A stretch of 64,000 nucleotides of DNA from an uncultured Verrucomicrobiae bacterium (GCA_963769025.1 CAVYKI010000003.1:128001-192000); one strand, 5' to 3'. Positions 34,013 to 56,156 are shown, counted from the first letter of the stretch. Notes: generated by a model from the sequence alone, not told the origin. Program-made: numbers and translations.

Positions 34013-37000
34013 TCAGCGGAATGCCGGGCGAGCTTCGGCACGCGGCCCGGCAGGTCTGCGGGGCGGGGCGCCGATGTCGGTGGCGGTCACGGGATTCGGC
34101 GGCGCGGGAGCCTGTGGCGGTGGCTGCGGCTTGAGTTCGCGGCCGGATTTGGTGACGGGCTTGCCGTCCTTCGTGGAGACATCCTCGACGCGATAGAGCG
34201 ACCCGTCGGCGTGTCGCAGCAGGGGCCGCATTTCGTCGAGGCTCAACGGGCGCGCCCCGCGCCGGCCAAAGACGACCGTCTGCCCGCCGGTCTCGTCGGT
34301 GACGCGATCGCGGTCGAGTCCGCGGGAGACGGAGAGCGCACGATGCTTGGTGGGATACGAGGCGATGAGCCGCGGCGAAGGGCGCGGGCTGAATCCCGCG
34401 GCGCCCTCGACGGTGTCGGGCGAGATCAGCTGGACCACGCGCAGGCCGTTTTTCCCGTCGGCGACGAGCGCATACATGGATGCGGCGACGGAGCCGATCT
34501 GCACGGCCTGCGCGTCATTGATCTGGCCGCCGGCGGTGAACACCTGATCCAGCTTCGGCTTCTCGGGGTTTTCGATGTCGATGATGGCGAGTCCCTCCGG
34601 GCCGTTCGCGACGTAGGCGTAGGTGCGCGCGACGTAGAGCTTGCGCGCGTGGCGGAGCGGAACGCTGGCGCCGGGGATTGCGCGGGGACGTTCGGGGTCG
34701 GCGAGGCTGAGGACCTTCAACCCTTCGTCATCCGTGACGAATGCGTAGAGGAACTGCACGGCGATCGAGCGCGGGTTTTTCAGGAAGCTGCCGGTGAGTT
34801 CGCCGACGAGCCGCGGCTGATCCGGCTTTTTCACATCCACGACGGCGATGCCTCGCGGCGTGCAAATGTACACGCGATGCCCCGCACAGATCGCGTACTC
34901 CGCGCCGGTGAGCCGGCCGTCGGGATTGATATCCACGGCGGTCTTCTTGACGAAGTTGTTCTGCGGATTGCCGTCAAGCAGCGTGTTCACATCGCAGACG
35001 ACGAGCCCGAGCTTGCGGTCGGTGACGAATGCGTAGCCGTACCACGCGGGGATCGGCTGCTCCTCGTTTTCCGGGAGCTGGATGCGCATCGGGTCATTGA
35101 TGAGCGTGCTCGGCAGCGCGACCGACGTGGCGAACGGCGTGCGCACGTACGTCCGCTGCCCAAGCGGCGAGAACGGAGCGGTCACGATGCGTTCGCTGAA
35201 ATCCTTCTGATCAATGTTCGCCACGTCGTACACCTCGAAGCCGCTGGCCCCGTTCGCCGTGTAGAGGTATTCGCCGCGCAGTGTGAGGTCGTTGATTTCG
35301 CCCGAGTGGTGCTCGTGCGCCTCGGCGAGCTTACGGCCGCGCGCGAGGTGCTCGGCGTAGTTTCGCGGATAGGCGTTCTTGTGCATCGAACTGCCGATCA
35401 CCGACTGCGGTTCATCGGCCTCGGTCCAGATCACGGCGTGCAGATCCCCTTCCCCGCCGACGTATGCGTAGCGGCCGAAGAAATTCACCGTGCCCGTGCC
35501 GAAGCCGAGCAGTTGCGTCATCCACGCATTGTTGTCCTTCGCCTTCGCGAGATGGCAGTCGGTGCAGTTCTTCGTCGTGCCGACGCCGCTCGTCGTGTGC
35601 GGGAAATGCGGATTGAACGCCTGCCCGCTGTAGCCGTCGCCGCTCACCGTCTGCTGCTGCGAATAGACCCAGCCGCGGTTCTGCGTCTGCGAGCTCACCA
35701 GCACGGCGCTCGAGGATCGGATCACCGCGAGCCGGTTGTTTTTCACCGTGCCGTCGATGCCGAGCATGAAGACGTCGTCGCGCACCACCTGCGGATTGTA
35801 GGTCGTGAAATTGCGGCTGAGCGCGCCTTCGAATTTGTTCAACGGCACCTTCTGGTTTGCCTTCATGGAAAGGTGGCAGCCGAAGCAGCTCGTCGCCCAC
35901 GACGTGTGGCAGACCTGACAGTCCATGTTCTGGTTCGCGTGCGCGAGCGTGGACTTGCACTGCTTCTCGCCCGGCACTTCGCCCCAAGTCTCGCCGTCGC
36001 GCTGCACGGTCTTCGCGTGCGCGGCCTTCGCGTTGTACTTTTCCGAGACCGGATTGATGACGTCGATCGTCTGCGGGATTTCCCATCGCGCGTCCTTCGC
36101 CATCGTGGAGTTTTGGAAAAGGCGGCGCATCGGCTGGCCTTGCGAATCCTTGATCGGCTCGCCCGTGATTTTGTCCGTCACATCCTCCCACTCGAAGCGC
36201 GGCTTCCACGGCGTGATGCTCTTCGCGAGGTCCACGGGTGTGATTTTGCGCCGGTCCTTCGGGTCGGTCTGCCCCGCGGCGCCGCTCGTGATGAGCGTGG
36301 GCCGCGCGTTGATCGTGCCGTGGCAGTCCACGCACGTGATGGTCGTGGCGTTGCGCGCCTCGCCGTAAAGCAGGCCGTTTCCATGCACGTCCGTCTCGAA
36401 ATGGCAGTCCACGCACTGCATCCCCTTTTCGAGATGGATGTCCTTGAGATGCACGGCGCGCTTGAAATCGCGATGCGCGACGATGTTGTCATCGAGGTCG
36501 AGCCGGTTGCCCTTTTTGTCCTGCTTGAAGACGGCGCGAAAGATCCACCCGTGCCCGTGGTAGTCGGCGAACTGCGTGTGCTTCAGCTTCGGATTCAGCT
36601 CCGCGACCTTTTCCAGAAAATCGAGGTTGCCCCACAGCCCGCGCGCGGCGGCGGCCTCGGGATTTGAGACGGTTGCGCGGACGAGTTCGTCATCCGTCGG
36701 ATCGTGCTGTTCCTTCGGATACATAAATTCCGCATCCGTCTCCTGATCCCACCACGTGTATCCGAGGAACGGATTCACGAAGAGATTTCCCTGATGCATG
36801 TGGCAGTTCATGCACTGCGAGCTGGGGATGGAGCGCGTGAACTGATGGCTGATCGGATGCCCGCGCTCGCGTTTGGAAATCGTCGGGTCCTTCGAGAAGC
36901 TGAGCCCCTGATTTCCGAATTTGTGCCACCAGCCGGAGTTGCTCGGGGAGCGATCGTTCGCATAGACGACGTGGCAGGCGGTGCAGCCGCTCGAACGGTA

Positions 37001-38125
37001 GTCGCCGGGACGATCGTTCGAACCCATGAAGCCGAGCAGCGGATCGTGCAGGCGCGTCTTTTGTGCGCCGAGGAAAATGGGATCCGTGCGGTTCAGCGTG
37101 CCGAGTCCGCGCGGCGAGAGACGGCGCTCGGGCTTGCCGGGAGGCTCGTCGAACGCCGGCAGACCGGTCTGGAGCGGCTCGAAGCCGCCTTTTTCAAAAA
37201 TGCGGAGGATGTTTCCCGGCTGGCTGAGATTGAATCGCGGCAGCGGCACAAGCGACGGAAGGATGCCGAGCCGGCGCGTCTGCTCGGCGGTGGGCTTGAA
37301 CGGATTGTTCAGCTGGAGCGGAACGCCGTCCGCGCCGTAAGCCTGGCCGACGATTGCGTCCTTGCGGTTGATGGAGCCGTTGTTGTACGCGGCGGCGTTC
37401 CAGAGCATCGCGCCGTGGTTCATCATCGAGTGGCCGACGCGATCCACGATGTCGGCGTGGCAGAGCCCGCACGACTGCTTCGCCGCGCGGAGATCGCCGG
37501 GATTGATGAACCGGATGAACTCCGGCGATTCATGATTCAGCACGACGCTGGCGTTCACCGGATTCGCAGACGTCTGCCAGAACTCCGGATTCCGCGGCAG
37601 CACATGCGCCTTTTCGATGGCGAGCCCGCGCGCGGGATTCCCGCCGTGGCAGTCGGTGCAGCCGAGCACGACGTTCGGCGAAGTGTGCATCGTGTGCGTG
37701 TCCGTGGATGTGTGGCACTGGACGCAACCCACGCTCTTTCGGTTCGCCTCTTCCCAAGTCTGGTCGATGAGATTGCGCGGCGGACGCGACACTGAGACTT
37801 TTTCCGGACGCGCGGAGACCGGCGGGCCGAGACCCGCGCCCAGCAATTTTTCCGAAGTGGACTCCATGCCGGGGTGCTGACCTGCGCCCGGCAGTTGCGG
37901 GACCGGATAGGCGCCTGCCGATGTCGGCGGCCCGACGCCTGCGGCGGCGCCCGGAGGCGGCGGCAAAGCGGGAGGGACATCGCCCGGCGAGGGAAGAGGC
38001 GGAAGCTGCGTCCCGCCCGAAGCCGAGGTCGGCGGACCGAGACCGTCCTGCGCGTGCAGGAGCACGAGCGGCACCGCGACCACGAGGCTCGCGAACGCGA
38101 TCAAGAGTGGCGGAATGGGGCGCAT
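34013..38125 (-). CDS. Secreted decaheme c-type cytochrome with C-terminal LVIVD-type repeat propeller
   Basis: Signal peptide; 10 CxxCH (CVQCH, CTDCH, CGLCH, CTACH, CMNCH, CVDCH x2, CQVCH, CFGCH, CTDCH); repeats such as YAYVANGPEGLAIIDIENPEKP and YALVADGKNGLRVV. Confidence 0.88.
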   Translation of the reverse strand: MRPIPPLLIAFASLVVAVPLVLLHAQDGLGPPTSASGGTQLPPLPSPGDVPPALPPPPGAAAGVGPPTSAGAYPVPQLPGAGQHPGMESTSEKLLGAGLGPPVSARPEKVSVSRPPRNLIDQTWEEANRKSVGCVQCHTSTDTHTMHTSPNVVLGCTDCHGGNPARGLAIEKAHVLPRNPEFWQTSANPVNASVVLNHESPEFIRFINPGDLRAAKQSCGLCHADIVDRVGHSMMNHGAMLWNAAAYNNGSINRKDAIVGQAYGADGVPLQLNNPFKPTAEQTRRLGILPSLVPLPRFNLSQPGNILRIFEKGGFEPLQTGLPAFDEPPGKPERRLSPRGLGTLNRTDPIFLGAQKTRLHDPLLGFMGSNDRPGDYRSSGCTACHVVYANDRSPSNSGWWHKFGNQGLSFSKDPTISKRERGHPISHQFTRSIPSSQCMNCHMHQGNLFVNPFLGYTWWDQETDAEFMYPKEQHDPTDDELVRATVSNPEAAAARGLWGNLDFLEKVAELNPKLKHTQFADYHGHGWIFRAVFKQDKKGNRLDLDDNIVAHRDFKRAVHLKDIHLEKGMQCVDCHFETDVHGNGLLYGEARNATTITCVDCHGTINARPTLITSGAAGQTDPKDRRKITPVDLAKSITPWKPRFEWEDVTDKITGEPIKDSQGQPMRRLFQNSTMAKDARWEIPQTIDVINPVSEKYNAKAAHAKTVQRDGETWGEVPGEKQCKSTLAHANQNMDCQVCHTSWATSCFGCHLSMKANQKVPLNKFEGALSRNFTTYNPQVVRDDVFMLGIDGTVKNNRLAVIRSSSAVLVSSQTQNRGWVYSQQQTVSGDGYSGQAFNPHFPHTTSGVGTTKNCTDCHLAKAKDNNAWMTQLLGFGTGTVNFFGRYAYVGGEGDLHAVIWTEADEPQSVIGSSMHKNAYPRNYAEHLARGRKLAEAHEHHSGEINDLTLRGEYLYTANGASGFEVYDVANIDQKDFSERIVTAPFSPLGQRTYVRTPFATSVALPSTLINDPMRIQLPENEEQPIPAWYGYAFVTDRKLGLVVCDVNTLLDGNPQNNFVKKTAVDINPDGRLTGAEYAICAGHRVYICTPRGIAVVDVKKPDQPRLVGELTGSFLKNPRSIAVQFLYAFVTDDEGLKVLSLADPERPRAIPGASVPLRHARKLYVARTYAYVANGPEGLAIIDIENPEKPKLDQVFTAGGQINDAQAVQIGSVAASMYALVADGKNGLRVVQLISPDTVEGAAGFSPRPSPRLIASYPTKHRALSVSRGLDRDRVTDETGGQTVVFGRRGARPLSLDEMRPLLRHADGSLYRVEDVSTKDGKPVTKSGRELKPQPPPQAPAPPNPVTATDIGAPPRRPAGPRAEARPAFR

Positions 38126-40457
38126 CAATACTGGAGCGTGACGGTGAGGAAGCCGTTGTAGAGGAAGTCATCGGCCTTTCCCGCGTCTCTGCGAGCCGAA
38201 GCCATCGACGGTCACGGTATTGGCGCGGTAGATGTCGCGATAGCCGCCGCCGGGAACGAAGAATCCCATGCCGATGGAGATCACGATGTTGTCCGTGAGC
38301 AGCGGCCGGTACTTGAAGCCGAAGCTCGCATCGAGTCCGAGATCATTGCGGAGCCGATCGGTCTGGAGCGCCACCTTCACCGCCTCGGGCTCGGCCAGCC
38401 AGATGTAGTTCACATTGAGAAACGCCTTCAGCTTTGGCGTGACGTCGATGTCAGTGCCGACGCCGAGGATGATCGCACCGGGGTTCACGAAGTTCGACTG
38501 CCCCTCGGTCTTGCTCGTGCGCAGGTTCGGCACGAGCGAGTCGCGCTGTTTCAGATTCACGGCCGTGCCCGCGAGATTGATGCCCTCGTGCGTGTACCAA
38601 CTGAACGGACCGCCGATGAAACTCGGATTGTCGAGGATGCTGTCGAATCCGCTGGCCGTGCCGTTCGTCGGGTTCGGGTCACCGCTCGCGTAAAAGCGCG
38701 GAAAATTTGAGCCGGTACCAGTCGCGATCATAGCTCAGCTCGATCGCGGCCATCTGCGCGTTGATCGTGACCTCGCGGCCCGCGAGCGAGTTGTAGTCCT
38801 CCTTGCCGAGCACCTGGTAAAACGCGTGGGTGACATTCAGCCGGCCGATGTGCCCGTCGCCGGTCCAGCCGAGGTAATACGCATTCACCGAGTTCGAACT
38901 CGGGCGTCCCGCTGGCGGTGTCCCGGACGGTGCCGACATTCAGCGGGCGCGTGAGGAAGCCGTTCCGTCGTAGTGCGTGCCGCCGTCGTCGAAATTCATG
39001 TGGAGGCTGACCTGCGCGGTGTAGCCCTTCCACAGGAAGTCCTGCCGGAACATGTTCGCGATGACGACCTGCTGATGCCGCGAGTCGAACGTGTTCAGGC
39101 CCGAGTAGGTGTCCTTCTCGCGCATGTTGAAATACGCGAGGTTGTATTGCGTCCGGTTGTTGTCGCGCGTGCCGAAGATGCGCGCGCCGAGGTTCGTGTC
39201 GGAAAAGATGAAGCCGCGGAAATCCGAGATGAACGGCTGGTTGCCGAAGCGCGATGAGATCGAAGTCGTAGTTGTCCGACGTGTCGCGGACGTGGATCTC
39301 GGCGAACGCCTCCTGCAGCGCAAAGTGGTCCTTGAACCGCGTGGTGTAGCGGCTCCCGCTGAAGTCGTTGTTTCCGCCGCCGGTGGCCGTGTTGTTCGTC
39401 GTGACGGTCGTGGCGGTGGTCGTCGTGCCATTGATCGGCACGAGCGCCTGCGCATTTCCCAGCGGCTGGAGCTGCGAGGAGAGGTAGTTGAACGCCGTGG
39501 CGGGATTCACGTTCGACGTGAACAGCCCGGGATTTCCGGACTGCGGATTCGCGCTTCCCGCGACGCCGGGGACCGCGCCGATGGCGGAGGTGTTCGGCGC
39601 GAAAGTGGCGCCGCCGTCCGAGCCGCGCGGGTCGGGATTCAGGAGGTTGTTTTCCCGCACGCGCGTCCAGTTGTTGTTGTACACCGCGTTCACGCGGATG
39701 AGCCAGCGTCACCGGCTTGAAGGCCGTCTCGCCCTTGAAAAGGTCGAATGCGAACGACACGTCGTTGGAAAACATCATCTGCTCGCCGCGGCCGAAAAAC
39801 TCCGCGCTGTTCGGCGTCGCCGTGCTCACGCCGCTGGGCACGGGCAGCTTGCGGACCTCGTAAAGCGCGAAGTCCTTCGCGGTGAGGTTCAGGAAAATGT
39901 CCTGCCCGATGATCGGCAGATCGCCCTTCAGTTTGCTCTGGCGGTACGGGTGCCAGAGCCGCGGCGTGTCGTACGTGTACGGCGTCTCGGTCGAGGGATC
40001 GCGGTAGCGCTGCCAGTGCGGGAAATGGCAGCGTCCAGCGGTTCGGCACCGCCGTCGAATTTGGCAGCAGGCCGAGGCCCTCGCGGCCCATCGGATACGA
40101 GTTGTAGGTGAATGTCTTCTTCACCGGGTCATGGCCGAGGACCATGCCGCGCGGCAGCTTCAGCGAGCCGGGAAGAATCGGATCCTCCGGAAAAAGGAGC
40201 GGGTCGGTCGCGCCCGGCGAAAGGCCCGGCTCGTTCCAGACTCCGGGATCGGGATTGAACACCGCGGGGGACTTCGGCGGCTCCTCCTGGACATTCCCGG
40301 CGGTCGGGCGCAGCGCCGGCGTCCCTTTGCGAAAACGCGGCCGCGCGTCCTCGCCGTTCGCGTCGGCGGCGCCGGTCACGATCACCGCTGCGCAGACTAC
40401 GAGGCGGCGCGTGGATGCGCGCTGGGGACTGAGGCGGCGTTGGCCAAGTCTTGGCAC
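38125..40457 (-). CDS. Probable outer-membrane beta-barrel protein (several frameshifts)
   Basis: Six ORF fragments join into one protein with amphipathic strands (ALQEAFAEIH, QPFISDFRGFIFSD, YYLGWTGDGHIGRLNVTH, LGVGTDIDVTPKL); C-terminus NGFLTVTLQY* ends in an aromatic residue; stop overlaps the decaheme start (TGATG). Confidence 0.72.
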
Positions 40458-40582: not shown

Positions 40583-43176
40583 ATGAAGACGTCCATCTTC
40601 GCCACGGCTGCGCTCCTGTGCGCGATCCTCGTGCCGCAAAAGCTGCGGGCGCAGGACAGCGGGGAGCAGCTCACGGCGGCCGAGGTCACGCAGATCATCG
40701 CGCAGGCGGCGGCGGATGCGACGTGGAGAAACCCGGGAGCCATCATCGCCGTCACCGACCGCGAGGGATTCGTCCTCGGCGTCTGGGACATGCAGGGCCG
40801 CATTCCGAGTCCGCTGCCGGCATTCAGCCCTTTCCGATCTGGACAACAATCCCACGGCGGTCCGCACCTACGGCCTCTTCGCAGGCGCGATCACGCGCGC
40901 GGGCACGGCGGCATTCCTGAGCAGCGACCAGGAGGCGCTCACGACGCGCACCGCGGGATACATCATCCAGCAGCATTTCCCGCCGGGCGTCGCCAACACG
41001 CCTCCCGGCCCGCTCGTCGGCGTCGGTTTCTCGAGCCTGTTTTTTTCCGACATCAACCGGCTCAAACAGATCGCGAATCCGCTCTCAGCCGGTTCGCCAT
41101 TCGATCCGTCCGACCTCCGCGCTTCGCTCGCCCCCGGCGACACGGCCCGCATTTCGCCCGGCATCCGCGGCAACACGATCATCCCCGGCTCGCTGAACGA
41201 TTCCCCCGGCGGCGTGCCGCTCTACAAGAACGGGCATCTGGTCGGCGGCATCGGCGTCACCGGCGACGGCTACCCGACGAACCTCGCGCCGGCGGCGGCG
41301 ATTTTCCTGAACGAGACGAACACGACCTCCACCCCGGGCTTCGTGCCGAACGCGCTGAGCGACGCCGACGAGCAGGTCGCGCTCGCGGGCCAGCGCGGCT
41401 TCCGTCCCTCGCCGTACATCGTCGCGACGAATATCCTCATCAACGGAATCCGCATCCCGTACGTGTGGCAGGCCGTGCAGGACATCGTGGACGCCACGGG
41501 CTCCGTGCCGCTGACCAGTCTGCCGGGACGCATCGTGGACGGGTTTCCGATCCAGGCGCCGCCGCCGCCATTCCCGTATCCGGTCACGCAGCTCGGCGGC
41601 GTGACGGGCGAATTGCGCGGCCCTGTCGTGTTCGATTCGCCGGCGAATCCGTCCGGCACGATCCGTTTCATCGACGACCCGGTCTCCGCGATTCCGGGCA
41701 GGCAGCTCATCGGCGGCCAGAGCCGGCTGACCGCGGCGGAGGTCACGCAGATCATCACCAAGGCCGCGCAGCGCGCGAACATCACGCGGGCCGGCATCCG
41801 CCTGCCGCTCGGCACGTCGGCGAAGGTCTTCATCGTCGTGGTCAACAATCCCGACAAGGACCTCGAGGCCCCGGCTGTCCTCGGGACGTTCCGGGTCGGC
41901 GATGCGACCGTTTTCTCGTGGGATGTCGCGGTGCAAAAGGCGCGGACGTCCGTCTTCTTTTCAAACAGCCAGCTCGCGATGTCCACGCGCGCCGTCGGCT
42001 TCCTCGCGCAGAGCAATTTTCCGCCGGGCATCGACGGCAAGGCGTGGGGTCCGCTGTTCGGTTTTCAGGAAGCCGTGTCCTTGAAGCGCGCGCCGGTGAC
42101 GGGCGCGTTCCCGGGGAATCCGAACCTGCCGAATGGCATCACCATTTTCCCCGGCGGCTTTCCGCTCTACCGGAACGGCGTCGTCGTCGGCGCGATCGGC
42201 GTTTCCGGCGACGGCGTCGATCAGGACGACATCATCGCGGCGAGCGGATGCGCGGACTTTCTGGCGTATGACACGCATCCGCTCGGACACGTATTCGTAC
42301 GGCGGCGCGCGGCTGCCTTACGCGAAATTCCCGCGCAACCCGGTCGTCGCGGTGGACGCAGCCATCGACCCCGTCCCCGTCCCCGACGCGCCCGAGATGG
42401 ATTCCTCCGCGGTCGTCCGCTTTTCGCCAAAGGACGTCAGCGGTGACGGCGTCGCGGACCTGCTCTTCCAGAATTCCTCCGGCCAGGTCGCCGTCTGGTA
42501 TATGAACGGGAAAGGCTCCGCGTCGGGACTCGACACGCTCTACAGCGGCAACCTCGGCGACTGGAAAATCGTCGGCGCGGCGGACATCAACGGCGACGGC
42601 AACGCCGACATCCTCTTTCAAAACACGCTCGGCCAGATCGCCGTCTGGTACATGGACGGCAGCGGTGGACGCTCCGGCGTCGCCTACATCTACGGCGGCG
42701 GGCTCGGCGATTGGAAAGTCGCCGGCATCGCGGACATGAATGGCGACGGCAACGCCGACATCCTTTTCCAAAACACCACCGGGCAGATCGCCGCTTGGTA
42801 CACGGACGGCAAAGGCTCCATCTCCGGCACCGCCGACATCTCCAGCAGCGGGCTCGGCGACTGGAAAGTCACCGGCGTGGCGGACATGAACGGCGATGGG
42901 AATGCCGACATCCTCTTCCAGAATACCCTCGGCCAGATCGCCGTGTGGTACATGGATGGCAAAGGCGCGCGCTCCGGGAGCGCCTACATCCACGCTGGCG
43001 GCGTAGGCGACTGGCGGGTCGTCAACGTCGCGGACATGAATGGCGACGGCAATGCGGACATCGTCTTTCAGAACACCTCCGGCCAGGTCGCCGTCTGGTA
43101 TATGAATGGCAAGGGTTCCATCTCCAGCACCGCCTACATCTACAGCGGCGGCCTCGGCGACTGGCGCCTGCGCTGA
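40583..43176 (+). CDS. Secreted protein with two GlcG/HbpS-like heme-binding domains and C-terminal FG-GAP-like repeats (frameshifts near 40835 and 42270)
   Basis: Signal peptide; LTAAEVTQII twice; IAVTDREG; PGGVPLYKNGHLVGGIGVTGDG and PGGFPLYRNGVVVGAIGVSGDGVDQDD. Confidence 0.8.
42433..43173 (+). repeat. Five tandem 150-bp (50-aa) FG-GAP/VCBS-like repeats
   Basis: Unit DxNGDGNADILFQNxxGQIAVWYMxGxG...GLGDWK; first two units start at 42433 and 42583. Confidence 0.92.
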
Positions 43177-43257: not shown

Positions 43258-44397
43258 TCAGGACTGCGGGAGCTGCTTGAGGACCGCTTCCAATTCCTGC
43301 AACGCCGCGGCGAACTTCGACGGCTCGAAGTCCTCCTGTTCACGCGCCTGCCGGAAGACGGCATCAATCGACTTCTCGAATGCCGGCGCCTCCGTTCCGC
43401 CTTCCTTTTTCCACGCCGCCCACAGCCGGTTGATCGCCGGCGCGAGCACTTCCGCCCGCCTCCGATGTTCCGCCTTCCCGAGCTTCGCGTCGCCAAATTC
43501 CGAGTGGGCCGCGACGTAGGCCTTCAGCTGGGACATGAGCTGACTCCGCGTCCATTTCGTCCGCGACGCTTCGCGCGCGAGGCGATCCGCGGCGGATTTC
43601 ATCGCGGCGAAATCCTCCCCTCCCGTGAGTTCCTTTTTTCCGGAATCGGTCTTGCGCAGCAGCCACACGAGCGCGTTCCAACGCACGACCAGGTGCTCGT
43701 CCCGCTGTGTCCCGAGCTTCCAGCTCATCTCGCGAAGGGCGACCGCCTGGCCCGTCAGCCATGAACGCGGCCCGATCGACGGCCGCTCGTCCTTGTAGTG
43801 CGGAGGCTGCGCGACCGACTGCCCGTCGAGTTCAAAATAGAGTTCCGGGTGCCCCGCGCGCCGGATCGGCTCGTCGAGATTCAGGTGGCAGGCGACGCAC
43901 ACGTTGGCCCGGCCATGGATGTCGTTCATGTCGCGCAGCCCGAGGCCGACGATTTGATGATACGTGACGTCCGTCCTCGTGTGGAAACGCAGCCACGCCT
44001 CCGCCGGCCCGTGGCAAGCCTCGCAGCTCACTCCGCGATCCGCCTTCGGCAGCCCCTTCACCAGCCGCTCCGGCGCGACGGCCTCCATCGGCGAATGGCA
44101 CACGGTGCATTGCGCCGCCTTGCCGGGGTCGCCCGTGATGCCGAGCGCCTCGGCGATGCGCAGCGAGGTTCCTTTTGCCAGAATGCCAGCAGCCACCGCG
44201 TGCCGGTCCTTTCGCTCGAAAATGAGCGATTCATTGTGCCCCTTGCCGCCGCCGTGGCAGCTCGACGAGGCGCACGATTGCGCTCCCGTGAAATGCGCCT
44301 TCGCGATTGCCAGTTCATCCGCCGCGCACACCGGTGTCGGAAGGGCGCGCGAAAGGCTGGCGATGATGACGGCCGGGAGTATGCGTCGGAGTGCCAC
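43258..44397 (-). CDS. Secreted tetraheme cytochrome (c554-like)
   Basis: Signal peptide; FTGAQSCASSSCH (CX4CH), CTVCH, GVSCEACHGP, CVACH; AGHPELYFELD. Confidence 0.82.
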   Translation of the reverse strand: MALRRILPAVIIASLSRALPTPVCAADELAIAKAHFTGAQSCASSSCHGGGKGHNESLIFERKDRHAVAAGILAKGTSLRIAEALGITGDPGKAAQCTVCHSPMEAVAPERLVKGLPKADRGVSCEACHGPAEAWLRFHTRTDVTYHQIVGLGLRDMNDIHGRANVCVACHLNLDEPIRRAGHPELYFELDGQSVAQPPHYKDERPSIGPRSWLTGQAVALREMSWKLGTQRDEHLVVRWNALVWLLRKTDSGKKELTGGEDFAAMKSAADRLAREASRTKWTRSQLMSQLKAYVAAHSEFGDAKLGKAEHRRRAEVLAPAINRLWAAWKKEGGTEAPAFEKSIDAVFRQAREQEDFEPSKFAAALQELEAVLKQLPQS

Positions 44398-44657: not shown

Positions 44658-45596
44658 ATGAAAATCGACCGTTCTCACAGCCTCTGGATCCTCTTCGTCG
44701 TCCTCGCCACCTGCGGCGCGACTCTGCTGTACGTCGCGAACTTCTTCCCGCACCTCCTGCCGTTTCCGTTTCGGCTCCCCGCCATGCTCGGCAAGGCGCC
44801 GCCCTCGCACAACACCTACGGCGGCACGCCGCTCGGGTTGATTTTTGGCTCCGTCGCCTTCCTTATTTTTCTTTTCGCCTCCGCGCTCGGCATCCGGAAA
44901 AAGAAGCGCACGTGGCCCATCGGCAGCGTGCAGTTCTGGCTGAAAGGGCACATCTGGCTCACGATCCTCACCATCCCGCTCGTGCTCTTTCACTGCGGAT
45001 TCCACAGCGGCGGCATCCACACGAGCGCGCTCATGATCCTCTACGCCATCGTCATGGGCTCCGGATTTTTCGGCCTCGCGCTGCAGCAGTTCATGCCGCG
45101 CCTGATGCTGGAACGCCTGCCGCGCGAGGTGGTCTTCGAGCAGATCCCCTACCTCCGTAATCGCCTCCTCGAATCCGCGAACAAACTCCGCGACACCCTC
45201 GCGAAATCGCAACCCGTCACCGCAGCCGCGGGCTCGCAGCCGCAACCGCCTGCCGCCGTCGCGGACGATTCCTCCGTCCAGGTGCTCATCCGCTTTCTGG
45301 ATCGCGACTGTCTCCCTTACCTTTCCGCAAAACGCGGCACCCGCCATCCGCTCGGCGTCGAACAGATCGCGGCGAGCACGTTCAGCAGGCTGCGGATGAA
45401 TGTGGAGGAGCAATGGAAGCCGCGGGTGGACGCCATGCAAAACTGGTGCACCGACCGCCGGCTCATGGATCTCCAGACGAAACTCCAGCACTGGCTGCAC
45501 GGCTGGCTGCTCCTCCACGTGCCCACGTCGTTTGCGCTGCTCATCTTCACGGCATGGCACGCCGTCGTCGCCCTGCGTTTCATGCTGCCCGGGTAG
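44658..45596 (+). CDS. Integral membrane protein, ferric-reductase-like putative diheme cytochrome b
   Basis: About five hydrophobic helices; two H-x13-H pairs (HIWLTILTIPLVLFH, HVPTSFALLIFTAWH). Confidence 0.75.
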   Translation: MKIDRSHSLWILFVVLATCGATLLYVANFFPHLLPFPFRLPAMLGKAPPSHNTYGGTPLGLIFGSVAFLIFLFASALGIRKKKRTWPIGSVQFWLKGHIWLTILTIPLVLFHCGFHSGGIHTSALMILYAIVMGSGFFGLALQQFMPRLMLERLPREVVFEQIPYLRNRLLESANKLRDTLAKSQPVTAAAGSQPQPPAAVADDSSVQVLIRFLDRDCLPYLSAKRGTRHPLGVEQIAASTFSRLRMNVEEQWKPRVDAMQNWCTDRRLMDLQTKLQHWLHGWLLLHVPTSFALLIFTAWHAVVALRFMLPG

Positions 45597-45605: not shown

Positions 45606-47216
45606 ATGGACGGCAACTCTCCAACGCCAAAGCAGTCCTCCCAAAAGTATTGGGGCAATCTCGGCTACTTCCGGAAATCGCACTACATGCGCCGGCTCCG
45701 CGGCTGGTGCTTCGCGATCACCGCCCTCTGCGCGATCGTCGCGGCCGCGACCTATCACTACTGGGGCACCGGCCGGATTTTCAGCAAAGGTCCCATCTCG
45801 CAAAACCACGCGAGCTTCGCGAACGACTGCCGCGCCTGCCACATCGACGCGGAGATCGACACGCTCAAGGCCGCGCTTTCCGAAAGGCCGAGCGGCGCTT
45901 CGCTGCAGACGATCCTCACCGCGGGCAGTTCGCGCGATGGCAAGTCCGCCCACTGGCCGGCCGAGCGCTCCCGCATGGATGAGGCCTGCCTGAAGTGCCA
46001 CGCAAATACCGCCCTGCACGCCCCGCAAACCGCCGCGCTCGCGCTCCGCAACGTTTCCACCGAGATGGCGCAGGTGCATGCCACGCAATGTTTCACCTGT
46101 CACCGCGAGCATGTCGGCCATGGTGCGATCGTCCCTCCGGACCGCCAGACCTGCACGTCGTGTCACAACAGCGCCGAGGAACTCCGGCTCGCGCGCACCT
46201 CACTCCCGCTCAAAGGCCAGCCCGTCGCCGCGACCGGCGAAAATCGCGACCTCGGCGACGGATTGATCCGCTTTCTCGCGCCAGCGGAAAAATCGCGCCC
46301 GGTGAAGCCCTTCGCCGACTACACCGGGCATCCGCCGTTCAGCTACGAAAAGGCCGGCCTCCGCGATCCGGCGGACCTGAAATACAACCACGCACGCCAC
46401 GAGCGCGACGATGTCACCGTCCTCGGGCCGAACAAAAAGCTCGCCTGCGCCGACTGCCACACGCCCGGCCCCGGCGGCGCATACTACCAGCCAGTGAGCT
46501 ACGCGAAGCACTGCCAGCAATGCCACTCGCTGCAGATTCTCCCGGATTTGCCAAACCTGCTCATCCCGCACGGCGACGCGCAAAAGGTCCGCTATTTCCT
46601 CGCGAGCATCCGGGTGGCGATCGAGAACGCGCTCCGCGCCGAAGGCACCACCGACGCGGCGGAACTCTCCAAACGGGCGGAGACCGAACAGCAAACCCTG
46701 CGCAACCGCGGACTCGATACGCTCGTCGAACTCGAACAGCGCGTCTTTTTCGACGGCGACCCGAAGGACAGCCCGAACGACCGCCGCATGCGCGCCGGCA
46801 ACCGGAAATTCCTCACCGAATGCGCCAAATGCCACACGGTCAACCCGGCCGAGCCCGGCAAATCCCCGCGCGTGAACCCGCCCAACATGGCCGAGCGCTG
46901 GGTGCAGCGCGGCCCGTTCACTCATCTGCCGCATACACACATGGAATGCGCGGACTGCCACGCCACCGCGCACACGAGCAAGCTGACAAGCGACATCCTC
47001 ATGCCGCCGCAAAAACTCTGCGCCGAATGCCACCGTCCCCCGGCCACCCCAAGCCCGCTCGCGGTGGCCAGCTTCAAATCCCCCACCCCATCGACAGCCG
47101 CCGAAGCACTCGCAGCCAAACAGCGCCACAGCGGCGGCATCAAATGGGACTGCCAGAGCTGCCACGCATTCCACGCCCCGGCCGCCCCCAGCCCATCGGC
47201 CCCGGCGAATCGCTGA
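45606..47216 (+). CDS. Membrane-anchored decaheme c-type cytochrome (c3-like)
   Basis: N-terminal TM helix, GPISQNHA, 10 CxxCH (CRACH, CLKCH, CFTCH, CTSCH, CADCH, CQQCH, CAKCH, CADCH, CAECH, CQSCH). Confidence 0.88.
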   Translation: MDGNSPTPKQSSQKYWGNLGYFRKSHYMRRLRGWCFAITALCAIVAAATYHYWGTGRIFSKGPISQNHASFANDCRACHIDAEIDTLKAALSERPSGASLQTILTAGSSRDGKSAHWPAERSRMDEACLKCHANTALHAPQTAALALRNVSTEMAQVHATQCFTCHREHVGHGAIVPPDRQTCTSCHNSAEELRLARTSLPLKGQPVAATGENRDLGDGLIRFLAPAEKSRPVKPFADYTGHPPFSYEKAGLRDPADLKYNHARHERDDVTVLGPNKKLACADCHTPGPGGAYYQPVSYAKHCQQCHSLQILPDLPNLLIPHGDAQKVRYFLASIRVAIENALRAEGTTDAAELSKRAETEQQTLRNRGLDTLVELEQRVFFDGDPKDSPNDRRMRAGNRKFLTECAKCHTVNPAEPGKSPRVNPPNMAERWVQRGPFTHLPHTHMECADCHATAHTSKLTSDILMPPQKLCAECHRPPATPSPLAVASFKSPTPSTAAEALAAKQRHSGGIKWDCQSCHAFHAPAAPSPSAPANR

Positions 47217-47238: not shown

Positions 47239-49699
47239 TTACTTTTTCCCTGCCGCGCCTTCCATCACGCGGCGGAGCAGTTCCTCTCCGGTCATGCGTG
47301 AAGCGGCTTCGTGCGGGCAGGCGGAGACGCAGCGGGGTTCCGCCACTGCCAGCTTTCCCTCGGCGTCGCAGAGGTCGCAGGTGACGGCCTTTGGCTGCGC
47401 AAGCGAGAGCAGATGGTCGGGGTGATCGGGGTCCGGGAGTTCGACGCGGCGATGCTCGTTTGGCACCATCGTGATGTTGCCGTAGGGGCAGTTGTCCGCG
47501 CAGAGGCCGCAGCCGATGCAGTGATCCTCGATGACGATCTGGAGGTGTTTGCCGCGATGGATGGAATCGACGGGGCAGCCGATCATGCAGTGTGGGTCGG
47601 TGCAGGAGCGGCAGGCGGTGGCGACGGTGAAGCTCTCGAAGCGCACGCCGTCGCGGAGCATGCGCGTGACTGGGACGCCGTGCGAGTCTGTGCCGTGCTG
47701 CTGGACGCAGCCCTTCGTGCATTCGTCGCAACGCGTGCAGAGTTCCATGTCGAGCACGAGGAGCTTCCGCCCTTCGTAGAGGCCGTGCTCGACGTATTCG
47801 CGCAGCAGCGGGTGGCCCTCCACATTGCTGCGAAGCGCCGCGAGGGATTGCTCGACCAGGCGGCGCCGGAGGACGGGGAATTCGCGCACGAGCTGCAGGA
47901 AATCCGTGCGGCTGAGACGCGCCATTTCGAGCGGGCCGAGCGCCGAGCACGTGGCGTTGCGGAAGCCCGCGGGGACGGCATTGGCGAGGTCATCGCCTGC
48001 CGCATCGAGCGCGGCCGCGAGGGCGAGGTCCACTTCCTCGGCGGTCTTGCGGACATCCTGCGGAGAGATGGCGAGCAGGCTGATCTCGCCGAGGATGGCG
48101 CCGGGGCCGCGGGAAAGGACGCCGGTCTCCTTTCCAAAACGCCGGACGCCGACCCGCACGTGGCCGAGCCGGACGAGATACATGGCATTCGCGCGGTCGC
48201 CCTGCCGGAAAAGCGTCTGCCCGGGACTGACGCGCACGAAGGTGAGCCGCGGCCGGAGGAAATCGACGATGCTTTTGAACTCGTCCGCGCCGATGCCATC
48301 GAACAGATCGGCCCCCTGCAGCACGAGGTCGAGCGCGCGCTCGCGGTAGTCGGCCTCGAAGCGCTCGCGCTGGGACGGGAGCCGCATGAGGCGGTCGAGG
48401 ACGTTGCGCCGCACCTCCCACACTTCGGCGTCGCCGACCGCGTGCACGCTGGCCGTCCGCGGCGTCCCGCTCAGGCACGCCATCTCGCCGAAGATCATGT
48501 CTTCGGGGGTGAGCTGAAAATGCAGCGGCGACGCGTCCGGTTGCCGGACGGTGACCTCGAAGTTCCCGCTGCGGATGAGGAACGCGGTGTTGCCCGCGTC
48601 GCCCTGCCGGCACACGACCTGGCCCGCCTTCAGCCTGCGGCGAATGACGAGGCCCTGTTGCCAGAGGAGGAATTTCGGCGAGATGCCGGCGAAGGCCGGG
48701 TCGGAGATCAGTTCCGCGGGCGAGAGCACTTCCTTCGAATGATCGCCGGCGGGGATATTGATGCGCGCGCCGGTCTTGAACGTGATGGCGCTCGTCGGGC
48801 ACGAGACCATGCACTCGCCGCACTGCACGCAGCTCGAATTTCCCATCGGCTCGTTCAGGTCGAAGCTGATCCCGGCGGTCGCGCCCTTGCCGGTCCGGCC
48901 GATGACGTGATTCTCCTGCACCTCGTCGCACGCGCGCACGCAGCGGTCGCAGAGGATGCACGCCGAGTGATCCACGAGGAAGACGGGCGATGAGGCGTCC
49001 AGTGCGCGGCGTCCGACATTGGGCGCAGCGGCGGGCGGCGGATCCGAGAGGACATCGAGCGCGAGGCGCGACGGTTCCGCGCCGCAACGGTCGACCATCT
49101 GGCCGAGTTCGTTGAACGGCGCGAGTTCCTGATCCAGCGCGGGCGGCTCGAACGGCTTGAGATGATTCACCGCGAGCATTTCCGTCATCACTTTCACCGT
49201 CTGCCGCACGCGTTCGCCGTCCTTTCCCGGATCGTTCATCGTGAAGACTTCCATCCCCTCCTTCACCTGATGCTGGCACGCGGGGAGCAGCTTGCGCTCG
49301 GCGGCGCGCTTGCCGCGCTTTTGCCCGTAGATCTGCACGACGCACATGCGGCAGACCGCCACGGGCGTCATGTGCGGCAGATGGCACAGCGTCGGGATCG
49401 GGATCTTCGCCTCGTCGCCCGGCTGCTTCACGTAGAGCTTCACTCGCGGCGTCGTAGATGGTCGTGTAGCGCGGCGTCGTCCGCCCTTCGATGTCCAGCA
49501 CGATGTTGCCGTTCGCGTCCTTCAGCGGCTCGGCGAGCGGCACGGTCACGGACTGGCCGTCGATCTGGAGCGTGACGGTCTTGCCGTAGTCGCCCTCCGT
49601 CGGGGAATCGAGGCGGACGAGCTGGCCGTCGATGTCGCGGCTGAACAGCCCTTCGTCGTCATCGCGAATGAACAGGCCTTCCCCAAGTCCGGGAATCAT
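47239..49699 (-). CDS. Multidomain Fe-S protein: NuoG-like [2Fe-2S] + 2x[4Fe-4S], two cNMP-binding domains, C-terminal 4x[4Fe-4S] (frameshift near 49443)
   Basis: IPTLCH...CRMC...LPAC; CILCDRCVRAC and CVQCGECMVSCP; FGEMACLSGTPRTASV and LGEISLL...RNATC; CTRCDEC...C, CRSC...CMIGCP, CIGCGLCADNCP, CDLC...CVSACP. Confidence 0.85.
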
Positions 49700-51751
49700 G
49701 GCGTGCCCTCCGTGCGTGTTCCCGATGGCGACAGGTGGCTCGCGACGTCATCGGGGAAAAAGGTGAGCGCCGTGAGCAGCGGCATCGGCACCGAGCGGCC
49801 GAGCCCGCAGATGGAAGCCAGCTCGATCGCCTTGCCCATTTCCTTGATGAGCGGGACGAGTTCATCGTTCCAGCGATCGGCGCTGATTTTTCCCGCGAGG
49901 AGGTGCGCGCCGAGCGACGCGAACTTCTGCGACCCGATCCGGCACGGGACGCATTTCCCGCACGACTCGTTGCGGAAAAATTCGATGGAATTGACGGCCT
50001 GCTCCACCATGTCGCGGCCCTCGGCATAGACGACGAGCCCGGCGCCGAGCGCCTGCGTGGGGCTCAGGCGCGCGGAACAGGTTCAGCTCGAGTTCCAGAT
50101 CGAGGATGTCGAGTTCCGTCGCCGCGGGATCGAATCCGCGGCGAGCCGCAAGCGCCTGCCACGCCTTGTTGTTCACATGGTCGCGCGGCAGGCCGTCGGG
50201 CGCGGTCAGCTTCGCGGGCAGAAAGCCGCCGGACGGTCCCGACGGCGCGAAGCCCTTGAGCGCCCGATCACCCGCGATGCCCTGGCAGTACTGCTCGCCG
50301 TGGATGAGTTCGCGCAGGGTCATTCCCATCGGCACCTCGTACACGCCGGGCCGCTTCACGTCGCCGGAGACGGAGAAAAAGCGCCGGCCCTGCCAGCCGT
50401 TCACGCCGAGCGCGGCGTAGGTCTTGCCGCCGTTGATGACGATGTACGGCACCCACGCGAAGGTCTCGACGTTGCTCACGAGCGTCGGGAGATCGTGCAG
50501 GCCGTTGGTCTCGAGCTTCGGCGGCATGTTGCGCGGCTCGCCGCGGCGATCGGACATCGCCTCGATGAGCGCGCTCTGCTCGCCGCAGATGTAGCCGCCG
50601 GGGCTGACGAAGACCGAAATCGGAAAAGGCCGGCCAAGCACCGACGCATTCGGCCCGCAGAATCCGAGCTTCGCCGCGCGCTCGATCTCGGCACGGCATG
50701 CCTCGATCTGCTCGTCGTATTCGTGGCGGATGTAGATGAACCCCTGCGTCGCCTCGGTGATGAGCCCGGCGAGGATCACGCCCTCGACGATCATGTGCGG
50801 CGCGCGGAGCAGCAGCTCGCGGTCCTTGAAGGTGGCCGGCTCGCTCTCGTCGCCATTGACGACGATGAACGCGCGCTCGTCCGTCTCCCGCTGCCGCGCC
50901 TTCCGGACCGCATCGCGCACATCGCGCCACTTTTGCGTCGCCGGGATGCCCGCGCCGCCCATGCCGCGAAGATCCGCGTCCTTGAGTTCATCGAGCAATG
51001 CGTCCGCCCATCCGCCGAGCGCCGCGCCCTTCGCCCAATCCGTCTCCGTCTGCCAGCACAGCACCGCGCCGGCGACCTCGGGCTCCATCGGGAAATCAAC
51101 GCGCATCTGGCGGATGCATCCCTGGCGAAATTCCTCCACGCGCTCCGAGCCCCATCCGGATTGTGTCTTGAGAGCCTCCGCGGCCGCCGCGAGCGACGTG
51201 TCGCGCGCCGCGATCGCCTTTCGCACACCGAGATACTCCGGCGTCTTGCCGCCGTACGGATCGATCATCCAATCCTTCGCCGCATAACCTTGGTCCGCAT
51301 CGTGATCAGGCTCGAGCGGCTCATCCCGCACGCACGCCTCGACCACGCCTCGCAACTCATCAGCCGAACGGCCAAGATAGTACTGCTCATGTCCCGAACC
51401 CTGCACGCTGACGCAAGCCGCCGGCGCCCGATCGCACCGGCCCACGCACGAGACTCCCTCGACCGCGACATGCTCACCGACGAGCGATTGCAACTCGCGC
51501 AGCACCGCTCCCGAACCCGCAAGATGGCAGGTCGTGTCCCGGCAAACGCGCAGGACGACCTTCTTCGGCGGCGAAAGCTGAAAGTGAGGGAAGAAACTCG
51601 CCACCGCCTGCAGGCGATACTGCGGCACGCCCGACTCGTCCGAAAACTGTTCGAGTGCCTCTTTTTTCAAGAACCCGAACTCCTCCTGAATCCGCTGCAA
51701 CGCAGGGACCAGCGTCGCGCCGTAAAGATTGAGAGTCGTCCCGGAGCTCAT
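49696..51751 (-). CDS. NuoE-NuoF-like fusion (NAD(H)-binding flavoprotein with [2Fe-2S] and [4Fe-4S]), frameshift near 50060
   Basis: VASFFPHF, CRDTTC...SCVGRC; LRGMGGAG, NGDESEPATFKDR, YICGEQSAL, NVET, SGDVKRPGVYEVPMG, ESCGKCVPCRIG...SICGLG; ATGA overlap with the downstream gene. Confidence 0.88.
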
Positions 51752-51873: not shown

Positions 51874-54800
51874 TTACACGTTGAGCAGTTCGCGAGTTTC
51901 CCTCTCCGTCAACGGCGGCGGGCCGTCCGCGTCTTCCACCAGCTCCGCCTTGCCACGCTTCCTGCGCCACCACTGCGCGACGTCATCGAAGAACGAATAG
52001 AACACCGGCGTGGCCAGCAGCGTGAGCAGGAGCGAGAGCGTCTGGCCGCCGATGATCACGCCGGCGATGGTGGTGTTCATGCTCGCGCCGATGCCGCGCG
52101 CGAAGATCATCGGGATCATGCCGGCGACGAAGGCGGCCGTGGTCATGAGGATGGGGCGCAGGCGGTCTTTGTTCGCCTGGAGGATGGCGTCGAGCCGCGG
52201 CAGTCCGCGGGCGCGGAGCTGGTTGGTGTGGTCGATCTGCAGGATGCCGTTTTTCTTCACCATGCCGAAGAGCACGAGCACGCCGAGCATCGAGAAAATG
52301 TTCAGCGATTCGCCGAAGATGAGCAGCGAGAGCAGGGCGAAGGGCAGCGTGAGCGGCAGCGCGAGCAGGATGGTGAAGGGGTGAATCCACGACTCGAATT
52401 GCGCGGCGAGCACGAGATACATGAAGAGCGCGGACATGAGCATCGCGGTGACGAAGGCGTTCACGGTGCGCGCCATTTCCTTGGAGCGTCCGACGGCGCC
52501 GGTCTGGTAGTCGGCGGGGAGGTTTTGCTTTTTCACCACGGCGTCGATGGCGGCGAAGATGTCGCTCTCGCCGTAGCCGGGCGCGTTGTTGGCGGTGATG
52601 GTGATCTGGCGCGTGCGGTTGGCGCGATTGATCTGCGCGGGGCCGGTGCGGTGCTCGAAGCGGACGAGGTTCGCGAGCGAAACGGGCGCGCCTTTTTCCG
52701 AAGGCACGGTGAGCAGGCCGAGGGCTTCCTCGCGGTTGCGGTGGCGCTCATCGGCGCGCAGGTGGATGTCATACTGCTCGCCGTTTTCGCTGAAGCTGGA
52801 GACATCCGCGCCCCCGACGAGCAACCGCAGCGTGGAGGAAAGGTCGGCGATGTTCACGCCCATCTGGCCGGCCTTGCTGCGATCGACGATGGCGGTGAGT
52901 TCCGGTTTGCCGCTGATGTAGGTGCTGTCCACGTCGCGGATGCCGGGGATTTTCCGGATCTCGACGAGCGCCTCATCGGCCGCGGCGGTAAGCCGCCCGA
53001 GGTCGGGGCCGGCAATCATGTATTGGACGTTCGCGCTGGACTGGCCGGTCGCGAAGGCGGGCACGAGCGTGACGGTCATGCGGTAGTCGGCGGGATACTT
53101 CGGCACGATCTGCGTGCGCACGAGATCCATCACGGCTTCCTGCGTCTGCGGGCGCTGCGAGGGATCGACGAGACGCACGTAGATGCTCGCGAGGTTCGGC
53201 GTGCGCTGGTCGCTGTCGCCGATGGTCAGCAGCGTGTATTCGACGCCGGGCATCTGCCGGATGTCGCGCGCGACGCGCTCGGCGGCGAGGTCGGTGACGG
53301 CGAGGCTGGAGCCTTCCGGCGTGCGCAGCGAGACCTGGAACTGCGCCTCCTCGGTCGCGGGCAGCAGCGATTTTTGCACGCGATTCATCAGCATCGGGAC
53401 GCTCGCGAGCGCGCCGACGCAGGCGAGCACGACGACCCACCGATGCCGCATGGAGAAGCGCAGCATCGCCATGTAGATGCGCTTCCAGCGGGTGGTAGAA
53501 AACGTTCACGAGCTTCGCCATGCCGCGCTCCAGCCAGTTCGGACGGGTGATTTTCAGCATCCGCGCAGAGAGCATCGGCGCGAGCGTGAAGCTGACGAGC
53601 AGCGACACGGCGATGGCGAAGGACATCGTGAGCCCGAAGCTGCTCATGAAGCGCCCGACCATGCCGCTGAGAAACGCGACCGGCACAAACACGGCGAGCA
53701 GCGAGAGCGTGGTGGCCATGACCGCGAGGCCGATCTCGCGCGTGCCGTCGAGGGCGGCGTCGTGCGCGGACTTCTTCTTCTCCTCGAGGTGCCGGAAGAT
53801 GTTTTCGACCACGATGATGGCGTCATCAATGACGATGCCCACGGCGAGCGCGAGCGCCACGAGGCTGATCATGTTCAGCGTGAGATTCGCGATCCACATG
53901 ATGCCGAAGGCGGCGATGATGGACGTGGGAATCGCCAGCGCGGAGATGAGCGTGGCGCGGCCATTGCCGAGGAAAAACAGCACGACGAGCGCGGCGAGGA
54001 TCGAGCCGAGGACGAGGTGCTCCTTCACCGCGCCGACGCTGGTGCGGATGACGAGCGAGTTGTCGCGCACGACTTCGATCTTGTAGCCGGCGGGCAGCCG
54101 CGCACCGAGCTCGGCGAGCCGCTCCTTGATCGCGTCCACGACGGCGATGGTGTTTTCGCCGGACTGTTTGCGGATGGAAAGGACGACGGTCGGCACGCCA
54201 TTGCGGCGCGCGCTGCTTTGCTGATCCTCCTCGCCGTCCTCCACGCGCGCCACGTCGCCGAGCCGCACGAGTCCGCCCTCATGCTCGCGCACGACGAGGC
54301 GCGAAAGCCGCTCGACGGACAGCACGCGGCCTTCCACGCGCAGTCCCGTTTCCCGCGCCACGCCCTGCACGACGCCCGCGGGGATTTGCACATTCTGCCG
54401 CTGGAGCGCCTTCTCCACGTCGGGCGCGGTGAGGCTGAAGGCGCGCAGCCGCACCGGATCGAGCCACGACATTGATCTGCCGCTTGCGCCCGCCGAGCAG
54501 CGTCACCTGGCCGACGCCGGGGCTGCTCTCCAACTGCCGCCGCAGCACCTTGTCCGCATACTCGGTGATCTCGCGCACCGGGCGCTCGGCGATGAGCGCG
54601 ACATTGAGCACCGGCGCGGCGTCGGCATCGAGCCGCTCCACGCGCGGCGCGTCCGCGGCCTTCGGCAGATCGTTGAGGATGCGGTTCACGCGATCCCGCA
54701 CTTCCTGCGCGCCGACCGCTCCGTCCTTCTCCAGCAAGAAACGCGATGATGACCTGCGAGATGCCTTCGCTGGAGGTCGAGTGCAGCTCGTCAATGCCGC

Positions 54801-55027
54801 TGACGGTGTTGACCGCTTCCTCGATCTTGTTCGTGATCTCGGTCTCGATTTCCTGCGGCGAAGCGCCCGGCATCGAGGTCGTGATGACCACGGTGGGAAA
54901 ATCAATCTTCGGAAAAAGATCCACCGGCAGCCGCGTGTAGCCGAGCACGCCGACGACCACGAAAACGAGCACGAGCACCGTGGCGAACACGGGGCGTTTG
55001 ATCGGAGATTGCGGCGAGCCATTGCAT
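51874..55027 (-). CDS. RND efflux transporter permease (AcrB/AcrD/AcrF family), several frameshifts
   Basis: LPVDLFPKIDFP, IEEAVN, VGIVIDDAIIVVENI, LAAQFES, KNGIL, DRLRPILMTT. Confidence 0.92.
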
Positions 55028-55040
55028 CGTGAGTGGAGCG

Positions 55041-56127: not shown

Positions 56128-56156
56128 GACGCGGCGGAGTTTCATTGCTTGCAAAA

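Follow-up and report, generated by a model that had tools for sequence, protein, structure and literature searches.

Within a 64,000-nucleotide stretch of DNA from an uncultured, soil-type Verrucomicrobiae bacterium (GCA_963769025.1, CAVYKI010000003.1:128001-192000; hereafter the window), one gene (47239..49699, minus strand) encodes a protein of ~819 aa, once a sequencing error is discounted, that contains in order: a NuoG/HydA-type module; two cyclic-nucleotide-binding (cNMP) domains, A and B; and a 4x[4Fe-4S] ferredoxin. Judged by its sequence features, which the published description matches, this is a long form of PtdE from the PCC4/ptd porin-cytochrome cluster. Its architecture, the conservation of its residues and the co-occurrence of its gene with others are directly observed. 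Their most likely reading, which we put at even weight, is that electrons would pass from NADPH through the Fe-S chain to a haem conduit, with the position or access of the C-terminal ferredoxin set by cyclic nucleotide. The two parts of this reading differ in strength: a conduit with an NAD(P)H link is probable, and control of electron flux by cyclic nucleotide, as far as sequence can suggest it, is evenly balanced.

Gene structure and domain architecture

The gene is divided in the assembly between an 85-codon piece (49445..49699, minus strand), which holds a conserved extension and the opening strands of the [2Fe-2S] domain, and, in another frame, a 734-aa ORF (49443-47239). Both parts occur in one chain in 113 of 119 close homologues (65-90% identical, from the best 120 of 1935 matches among 8000 scored candidates). 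An intact homologue aligns across both pieces, and intact relatives of ~820-850 aa are common. Short-read contigs, which come from relatives rather than from the same strain, have one base fewer at 49442/49444 in two unrelated runs of the four compared, and those of one run lack a base at 50070, in the upstream NuoE-NuoF gene. In the same window, rpoC is likewise broken into several frames. Taken together, the homologue chains, the short-read contigs and the fragmentation of rpoC identify the break near 49444 as one extra base, an assembly or sequencing error in an intact gene; the first two also rule out a pair of separate genes or a programmed frameshift. Single-base errors are numerous in this assembly (rpoC, AcrB, porin, GluDH and aldolase lie in several frames; 588-4682 and elsewhere), and split genes of this genome are therefore not to be read as pseudogenes.

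Residues are numbered throughout on the 734-aa ORF. Pfam detects Fer2_4, two Fer4 regions and two cNMP_binding stretches, and the cysteines follow a 4 + 8 + 16 pattern: Cys20, 31, 34 and 56 of the [2Fe-2S] site; CxxCxxCxxxC at 162-172 and 205-215; and C-terminal cysteines at 569-709. Every NCBIfam match falls under its model cut-off. The parts described in the initial annotation ([2Fe-2S] plus 2x[4Fe-4S], tandem cNMP domains, a 16-Cys C-terminus) are all present by domain search and Cys pattern, and their fusion in one polypeptide is real in the homologues, its open frame being split here by the assembly error. That a NuoG-type module is followed by neither an H-cluster nor a molybdopterin catalytic domain is also borne out by Pfam. 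An AF2 model of P0002, an intact homologue (90% identical; 135-row alignment), has pLDDT 92.8 and pTM 0.89.

The N-terminal module

The [2Fe-2S] ligands (49276..49386, minus strand; Pfam Fer2_4) are kept in 47/47 close and 60-64 of 65 distant members, and a 2x[4Fe-4S] ferredoxin follows (Cys162-215; 48799..48960, minus strand). The degenerate His/Cys site of the N5/FS4C type (49105..49164, minus strand) keeps His94 and an E-L tail and has lost its cysteines: His94 is present, yet no Cys follows it before residue 120. The loss of the His/Cys-ligated cluster site proposed earlier thus holds, and extends across the family. The strict H-x3-C-x2-C-x5-C motif occurs in none of 65 full-length members (63 distant representatives and two close), and His94 is kept in 47/47 close and 50/65 distant members. 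The last Cys position of the site is still Cys in 15/65; these members have His and two Cys, by sequence a half-way state of the site. The genome's own formate dehydrogenase alpha subunit retains the full motif.

In complex I, electrons leave towards NuoI by way of the His/Cys-ligated cluster; in HydA and FdsA that cluster lies on a side branch. Since this cluster is lost while both ferredoxin-type clusters are retained, the sequence points to an electron wire directed down the branch that normally ends at a catalytic site. The module superposes on NfnA, Fdh1A, FdsA and NuoG (Z 18-22, rmsd 1.8-2.8, ~210 residues). VIA aligns it to 9bov_A (Z 21.6, rmsd 2.3, 218 aligned), and phmmer matches it to 7t2r_A at E 2e-21. 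HydA/FdsA-type matches are confined to this module (phmmer, NCBIfam); VIA also places C-terminal residues in the catalytic-domain region of FdsA/NuoG, too few to count.

The NuoE-NuoF partner

A NuoE-NuoF fusion (49696..51751, minus strand), itself split by a sequencing error near 50070, lies directly upstream. The same arrangement is found in all 67 loci with at least 400 bp of upstream sequence, out of 76 fetched, and in P0144 a single natural 1483-aa chain joins NuoE and NuoF to the entire Fe-S/cNMP protein. Counted from the start of the N3 motif, NuoF continues for another 79-114 residues, and this tail has 4-5 Cys in all 65 untruncated partner ORFs (one more, cut by the locus end, was left out), none of which has an extra C-terminal Fe-S domain. 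This rules out a bifurcating enzyme of the BfuABC/HydABC type. A replacement N-module for complex I is ruled out by the genome's own nuo operon, which lies separately on contig C9 and has a canonical NuoF.

Three positions bear on nicotinamide specificity, and the partner in the window has Gln (near 50578), Met and Lys there. Where NADH enzymes have C-G-E-E, the motif is Y-I-C-G-E-Q in each of the 67 NuoF partners. Aligned by offset, this Gln corresponds to E. coli NuoF 183, Thermus/Aquifex 185 and RcFdsB Glu259, the last through the offset of a close relative. The +17 position is Met or Leu in 67/67 and the +20 position Lys in 64/67; the complex I NuoF of the same genome keeps Glu/Lys/Tyr at the three sites. 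The E. coli residue (E183) is cited in PMC10671435, which reports that E259Q, K276A and L279R each confer NADP+ activity on the R. capsulatus formate dehydrogenase (RcFDH). E259Q alone still favours NAD+ (kcat/KM 451 vs 79; PMC10671435, Table 1). The HydABC of T. kivui reduces NADP+ and not NAD+ (PMC8578170); the first and third sites are Ser/Arg in T. kivui HydB and Glu/Phe in A. woodii HydB.

Because Gln/Met/Lys occupy the three sites whose mutation gives NADP+ use in RcFDH, we infer an NADPH-using or dual-specific diaphorase. NADPH is likely to be usable as donor, and the donor is probably NADPH rather than NADH. A natural NuoF of the NADP type would be material for cofactor engineering. 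The FdsB/FdsA-type formate dehydrogenase encoded elsewhere in the genome (L077:6951-11824; G000:C2) retains its His/Cys site intact and has Glu at the first of the specificity positions, with Arg/Phe downstream.

The C-terminal ferredoxin, its membrane partner and the cytochromes

The C-terminal domain (47317..47739, minus strand) is a 16-Cys, HycB/HydN/DmsB-like 4x[4Fe-4S] ferredoxin. Its candidate partner (44658..45596, plus strand) is a five-helix inner-membrane protein with two W-x3-H-x13-H motifs and SGxxG, the counterpart of the PCC4 IMP and of PtdF, and is predicted to bind two b haems. Complex prediction for the two gave a score of 0.59, with 0.00 for the best control, which counts as weak support by the tool's calibration, in which the mark was reached by 116/157 solved and 2/215 mismatched pairs, and 18 of the 157 solved pairs and both mismatches lay at 0.60 or under. 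At least 93% of contacts agree between runs, and the partner pLDDT is at least 80. These values are consistent with docking of the ferredoxin on the di-haem b protein.

The remaining genes of the cluster encode: a decahaem cytochrome c with an N-terminal membrane anchor and 10 CxxCH, resembling PtdG (45606..47216, plus strand); a c554-like cytochrome with three CxxCH and one Cx4CH, resembling the tetrahaem PtdD (43258..44397, minus strand); an HbpS/GlcG-like haem protein followed by FG-GAP repeats, in two overlapping frames that are probably one gene (40716..43176, plus strand); a porin-like outer-membrane protein in several frames (38168..40457, minus strand); and a large 10-haem cytochrome with C-terminal LVIVD repeats (34013..38128, minus strand). 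The porin label derives from position and sequence, and the two pieces scanned gave no Pfam match. In the window the cytochrome genes are convergent with the Fe-S/cNMP gene and are not co-transcribed with it. Of the 32 loci that span 20 kb or more, 21 have the membrane protein and 21 the decahaem cytochrome.

Several features lie to the side of this arrangement. The HbpS/GlcG-like protein is present in 23/76 loci; its repeat tails, C- or N-terminal, differ between loci (FG-GAP in the window), and it does not appear in the gene lists of the PCC4 and ptd publications in their available form. The LVIVD cytochrome weakly matches ExtM of the Geobacter selenite/tellurite operon (E 8e-19, far under the cut-off), and a second, frameshifted paralogue lies on contig C7 (G000:C7:361-4122). 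On the same strand as the NuoEF gene, TetR-regulated RND efflux genes (51874-56981) immediately precede it, with an Rrf2 regulator further on (59438-59881); neither is a conserved neighbour in the 76 loci.

The cNMP domains

The cNMP_binding stretches are recognized by Pfam with 117 bits (E 3e-34). Domain A (48382..48642, minus strand; Pfam, alignment) has the canonical cassette G319-E320-x8-R329. In domain B (47884..48231, minus strand; Pfam, alignment, AF2) the cassette runs G452-E453...R495, with a spacer of 41 residues against the canonical 8. Every one of the 47 close members has the canonical G-E-x8-R spacing at site A, as does each of the 58 distant members that keep both E and R. Across the 65 distant full-length members, both Gly are invariant, E320 is kept in 63, R329 in 58, E453 in 57 and R495 in 58, each Arg being missing in 7; mean column identity, at 15-25%, is far lower. 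The initial annotation had read both sites as phosphate-binding GE...R motifs. Both do keep Gly, Glu and Arg; the spacing in B departs from that motif, and could disable the site. In the AF2 model the insertion folds as ordered helices. The residue that follows the cassette Arg varies (T/S/A/N/M), so preference for cAMP or cGMP cannot be read from sequence. On balance, the two domains probably bind a cyclic nucleotide.

The cAMP-regulated acetyltransferase Pat matches the protein at E 4e-10. Foldseek ranks PKA regulatory subunits first for the pair (2qcs_B, E 8e-15), with an rmsd of ~16 A over both domains, so the packing of A against B differs from that in PKA. This difference suits an alternative in which the conduit is real and the cNMP folds exert no nucleotide control of flux, serving instead as a rigid scaffold, as binders of another ligand or, through Cys323, as a thiol redox sensor. 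Cys323, which lies within cassette A where PKA has Leu, is conserved in 47/47 close, 56/65 distant long and 17/18 shorter members; across the family the site-B spacer is anywhere from 8 to 43 residues long; and the single compact, confident model, with its high pTM, fits a rigid particle as much as a switch. Against it, Glu and Arg are retained in both cassettes to a degree well beyond the column mean, and near-canonical cassettes are present in both domains of 10/10 short forms read. We regard this alternative as rather unlikely, and favour a nucleotide-responsive role for the two domains.

Long and short forms of the protein

Among 61 genomes (this one and 60 relatives), 12 encode the full-length long form and 18 match its C-terminal part only; none has both at E 1e-30. 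The ten short loci read, out of 18, all encode cNMP-cNMP-ferredoxin, directly before the membrane protein and the decahaem cytochrome in nine; in the tenth, the contig ends. A NuoEF orthologue accompanies the long form in 12/12 genomes and the short form in 0/18, and is found in one other, fragmented genome. The membrane protein occurs in 29/30 genomes with either form and 2/31 others, and the tetrahaem cytochrome in 30/30 and 3/31, counts that show pattern rather than significance, the genomes being kin and some of them incomplete. No NAD(P)H or donor module stands beside the short form in the ten loci read (from ORF lists filtered by codon bias), nor an NAD(P)H module beside the tetrahaem gene in the ten short-form loci listed; neighbouring genes do not account for the electron input of the short form. 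In short forms of the same genus or order (L087-L096), a long Pro/Ala/Lys-rich insertion often interrupts the ferredoxin domain, and the C-terminus has a conserved ...R-T-T-H tail.

Other N-termini are also found: 22 of 150 representatives scanned carry FHA or additional cNMP domains there. One representative, P0223, is 3779 aa long and has at least 12 tandem cNMP domains. The genes that accompany the two forms, together with these alternative N-termini, define a constant unit of cNMP-cNMP-ferredoxin, membrane protein and cytochromes, to which the NuoG-type relay is an optional front end. Because 18/61 relatives carry the cNMP domains and the distal ferredoxin without the upstream relay, the cNMP pair goes with the C-terminal ferredoxin and can do without that relay.

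This bears on the suggestion, made from the sequence of the window, that cNMP binding sets the distance between two relays. The conserved pocket Gly, Glu and Arg and the electron-transfer setting of the cluster agree with it; a short form with no second relay does not. The distribution argues that the pair did not evolve solely to set an inter-relay gap, which it may nevertheless do in the long form, and ferredoxin docking or access is no less likely a target of gating than that gap. The description of the cNMP domains as "inserted" gains no support from the tree: a quick midpoint-rooted tree of 68 rows (42 long and 26 short, from the 150 representatives and six loci) needs two label changes, and gives no order of long and short form, or of fusion and loss. 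Chthoniobacterales of soil and freshwater widely carry the cluster, which is also present in Acidobacteriota and Planctomycetota, where atlas clusters of the same architecture carry automatic names.

Messenger supply and the possibility of a signalling device

The genome has three class III cyclase matches, none of them beside the gene: the nearest found is ~130 kb away, and the best is on another contig, C10. On that contig (L078:4762-11157; G000:C10), a cNMP-histidine kinase, a beta-barrel gene, two FecR-like genes and a CHASE2-type class III cyclase lie together; a similar cyclase/FecR/barrel unit adjoins the Fe-S gene in L033, L035, L039, L041, L042 and L044. A class III cyclase is found within 10 kb of the gene in 18/76 loci and 13/32 full-length loci, more often than the 1-17 matches per genome would suggest, in what are probably few independent events, the linked loci being kin. 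Co-occurrence at the genome level was set aside as support, since it does not discriminate (30/30 genomes with the protein, 24/31 without).

The recurrence of CHASE2 cyclase, FecR-like and beta-barrel genes beside the cluster raises the question of whether the system serves mainly for signalling rather than for bulk electron transfer, reading envelope redox state through haems and Fe-S clusters and coupling it to binding or release of cyclic nucleotide, with NADPH merely poising or resetting it. Such a device would accommodate the members in which FHA or additional cNMP domains replace the NuoG module, as well as the short forms with no visible donor module. The protein itself has no output domain by Pfam (kinase, DNA-binding or cyclase), the long form has a full diaphorase, and ~24 c-type haems with a porin-like gene would be a large investment for sensing. 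We consider a primarily signalling role improbable, and retain the nucleotide-controlled conduit as the working model.

Proposed mechanism

From these observations we infer the cofactors, the NADPH preference, the docking and the direction of flow. The protein would be the cytoplasmic connector of a trans-envelope electron conduit, in which the reaction likely involves: reduction of the FMN of the NuoE-NuoF partner by NADPH; transfer through N3 to the [2Fe-2S] cluster and the pair of [4Fe-4S] clusters, following the branch that in HydA/FdsA feeds the catalytic site; transfer to the C-terminal 4x[4Fe-4S] domain, which would take the place of the catalytic domain and dock on the di-haem b membrane protein; and passage from the di-haem b protein into the multihaem cytochromes (decahaem, tetrahaem, 10-haem) and the porin. 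On binding a cyclic nucleotide, for which cAMP is the likeliest candidate, the two cNMP domains would control where the C-terminal ferredoxin sits or how accessible it is, making flux dependent on the second messenger.

Flow in the opposite direction, an extension of the PCC4 uptake model in which periplasmic or extracellular electrons entering through porin, cytochromes and membrane protein reduce NADP+, is the least probable alternative: PCC4 has been proposed for Fe(II) oxidisers with inward flow (PMC5566968) and an NADP-type site would suit the supply of biosynthetic reductant, but electrons at c-type haem potentials would have to run uphill to reduce NADP+, the system has neither a proton-pumping nor a bifurcating part, and the membrane protein resembles the outward-running ferric reductase/NOX domain.

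A more specific form of the outward model is tentative, and may well not hold: a cAMP-gated, NADPH-driven trans-envelope wire, the multihaem analogue of NADPH oxidase/ferric reductase. Here, a sensor-ferredoxin core would take swappable N-modules (NuoG-type wire, FHA or none), and Cys323 may provide an extra redox input. Second messengers usually control respiration through gene expression; if the model is true, one acting inside an Fe-S subunit would open and close flow from NADPH to periplasmic or extracellular acceptors. The literature searched yielded no case of direct allosteric control of an Fe-S wire by a second messenger, and describes neither the long form nor its NuoEF input nor any cNMP control. 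The NADPH-type sites of the NuoF partner and the helical insertion in the second cNMP pocket are new here. PCC4/ptd has been without an assigned function since 2017, and the long form points to a likely electron donor for PCC4-type systems. The long form would be an easy entry, as two soluble proteins suit an NAD(P)H-in, Fe-S-out assay.

Comparison with known systems

The closest known system is PCC4/ptd. PCC4 subgroup II has an Fe-S gene of unknown function (He et al. 2017, PMC5566968), and the cNMP/4Fe-4S gene of the ptdABCDEFG cluster was named PtdE, again with function unknown (bioRxiv 10.1101/2023.11.21.568154). As far as the available text of these papers goes, they share with the system described here: cNMP domain(s) joined to a 4Fe-4S ferredoxin (Pfam); a ferric-reductase-like membrane protein with W-x3-H-x13-H twice, SGxxG and five helices; and decahaem, tetrahaem and porin-like genes in the cluster. 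The same text holds no mention of cNMP control or of NuoEFG-type input, and the supplements may show long forms. Against that description, the N-terminal [2Fe-2S] plus 2x[4Fe-4S] module and the NuoE-NuoF partner are additional here, and the large cytochrome has 10 haems and LVIVD repeats where ptd has the pentahaem PtdA. No FAD/NAD(P) oxidoreductase of the PtdC type is seen in the cluster, the adjoining flavoprotein being NuoE-NuoF. A 2026 peat preprint (10.64898/2026.05.27.727921) reports porin-cytochrome clusters in other Verrucomicrobiota orders; its available text contains none of the terms "cyclic", "NADH" or "Nuo".

The NuoE/NuoF folds and the HoxU/HydA-like N-terminus are common to HoxEFU, FdsGB with the FdsA N-terminus, NuoEFG and HydABC/NfnABC (Bfu). 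In contrast to those modules, the protein has no H-cluster, NiFe or molybdopterin domain and has lost the His-ligated cluster, and its NuoF, unlike that of bifurcating diaphorases, has no C-terminal ferredoxin domains and is thus not bifurcating. The genome also encodes its own complex I and FdsBA. Identity with complex I NuoG was rejected, as the N5 His/Cys site, the molybdopterin-like C-terminal domain and the nuo operon context are all missing.

Tandem cNMP folds with GE..R cassettes are likewise found in PKA-R/PKG and in Pat. Unlike in PKA-R, the pair is here fused between Fe-S domains and has a different A/B geometry (TM 0.38 on target, rmsd 16 A); unlike in PKA-R/PKG, it has Cys at the cassette Leu position and a long helical insertion in site B. 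The C-terminal 16-Cys pattern is that of the ferredoxin subunits HycB, HydN, DmsB and ArrB (HycB4, E 1e-11; HydN, E 2e-15). Members of this family form the link between a cytoplasmic module and a membrane anchor. Here the ferredoxin is no free subunit, and its predicted anchor is a ferric-reductase-like cytochrome b rather than NrfD/PsrC.
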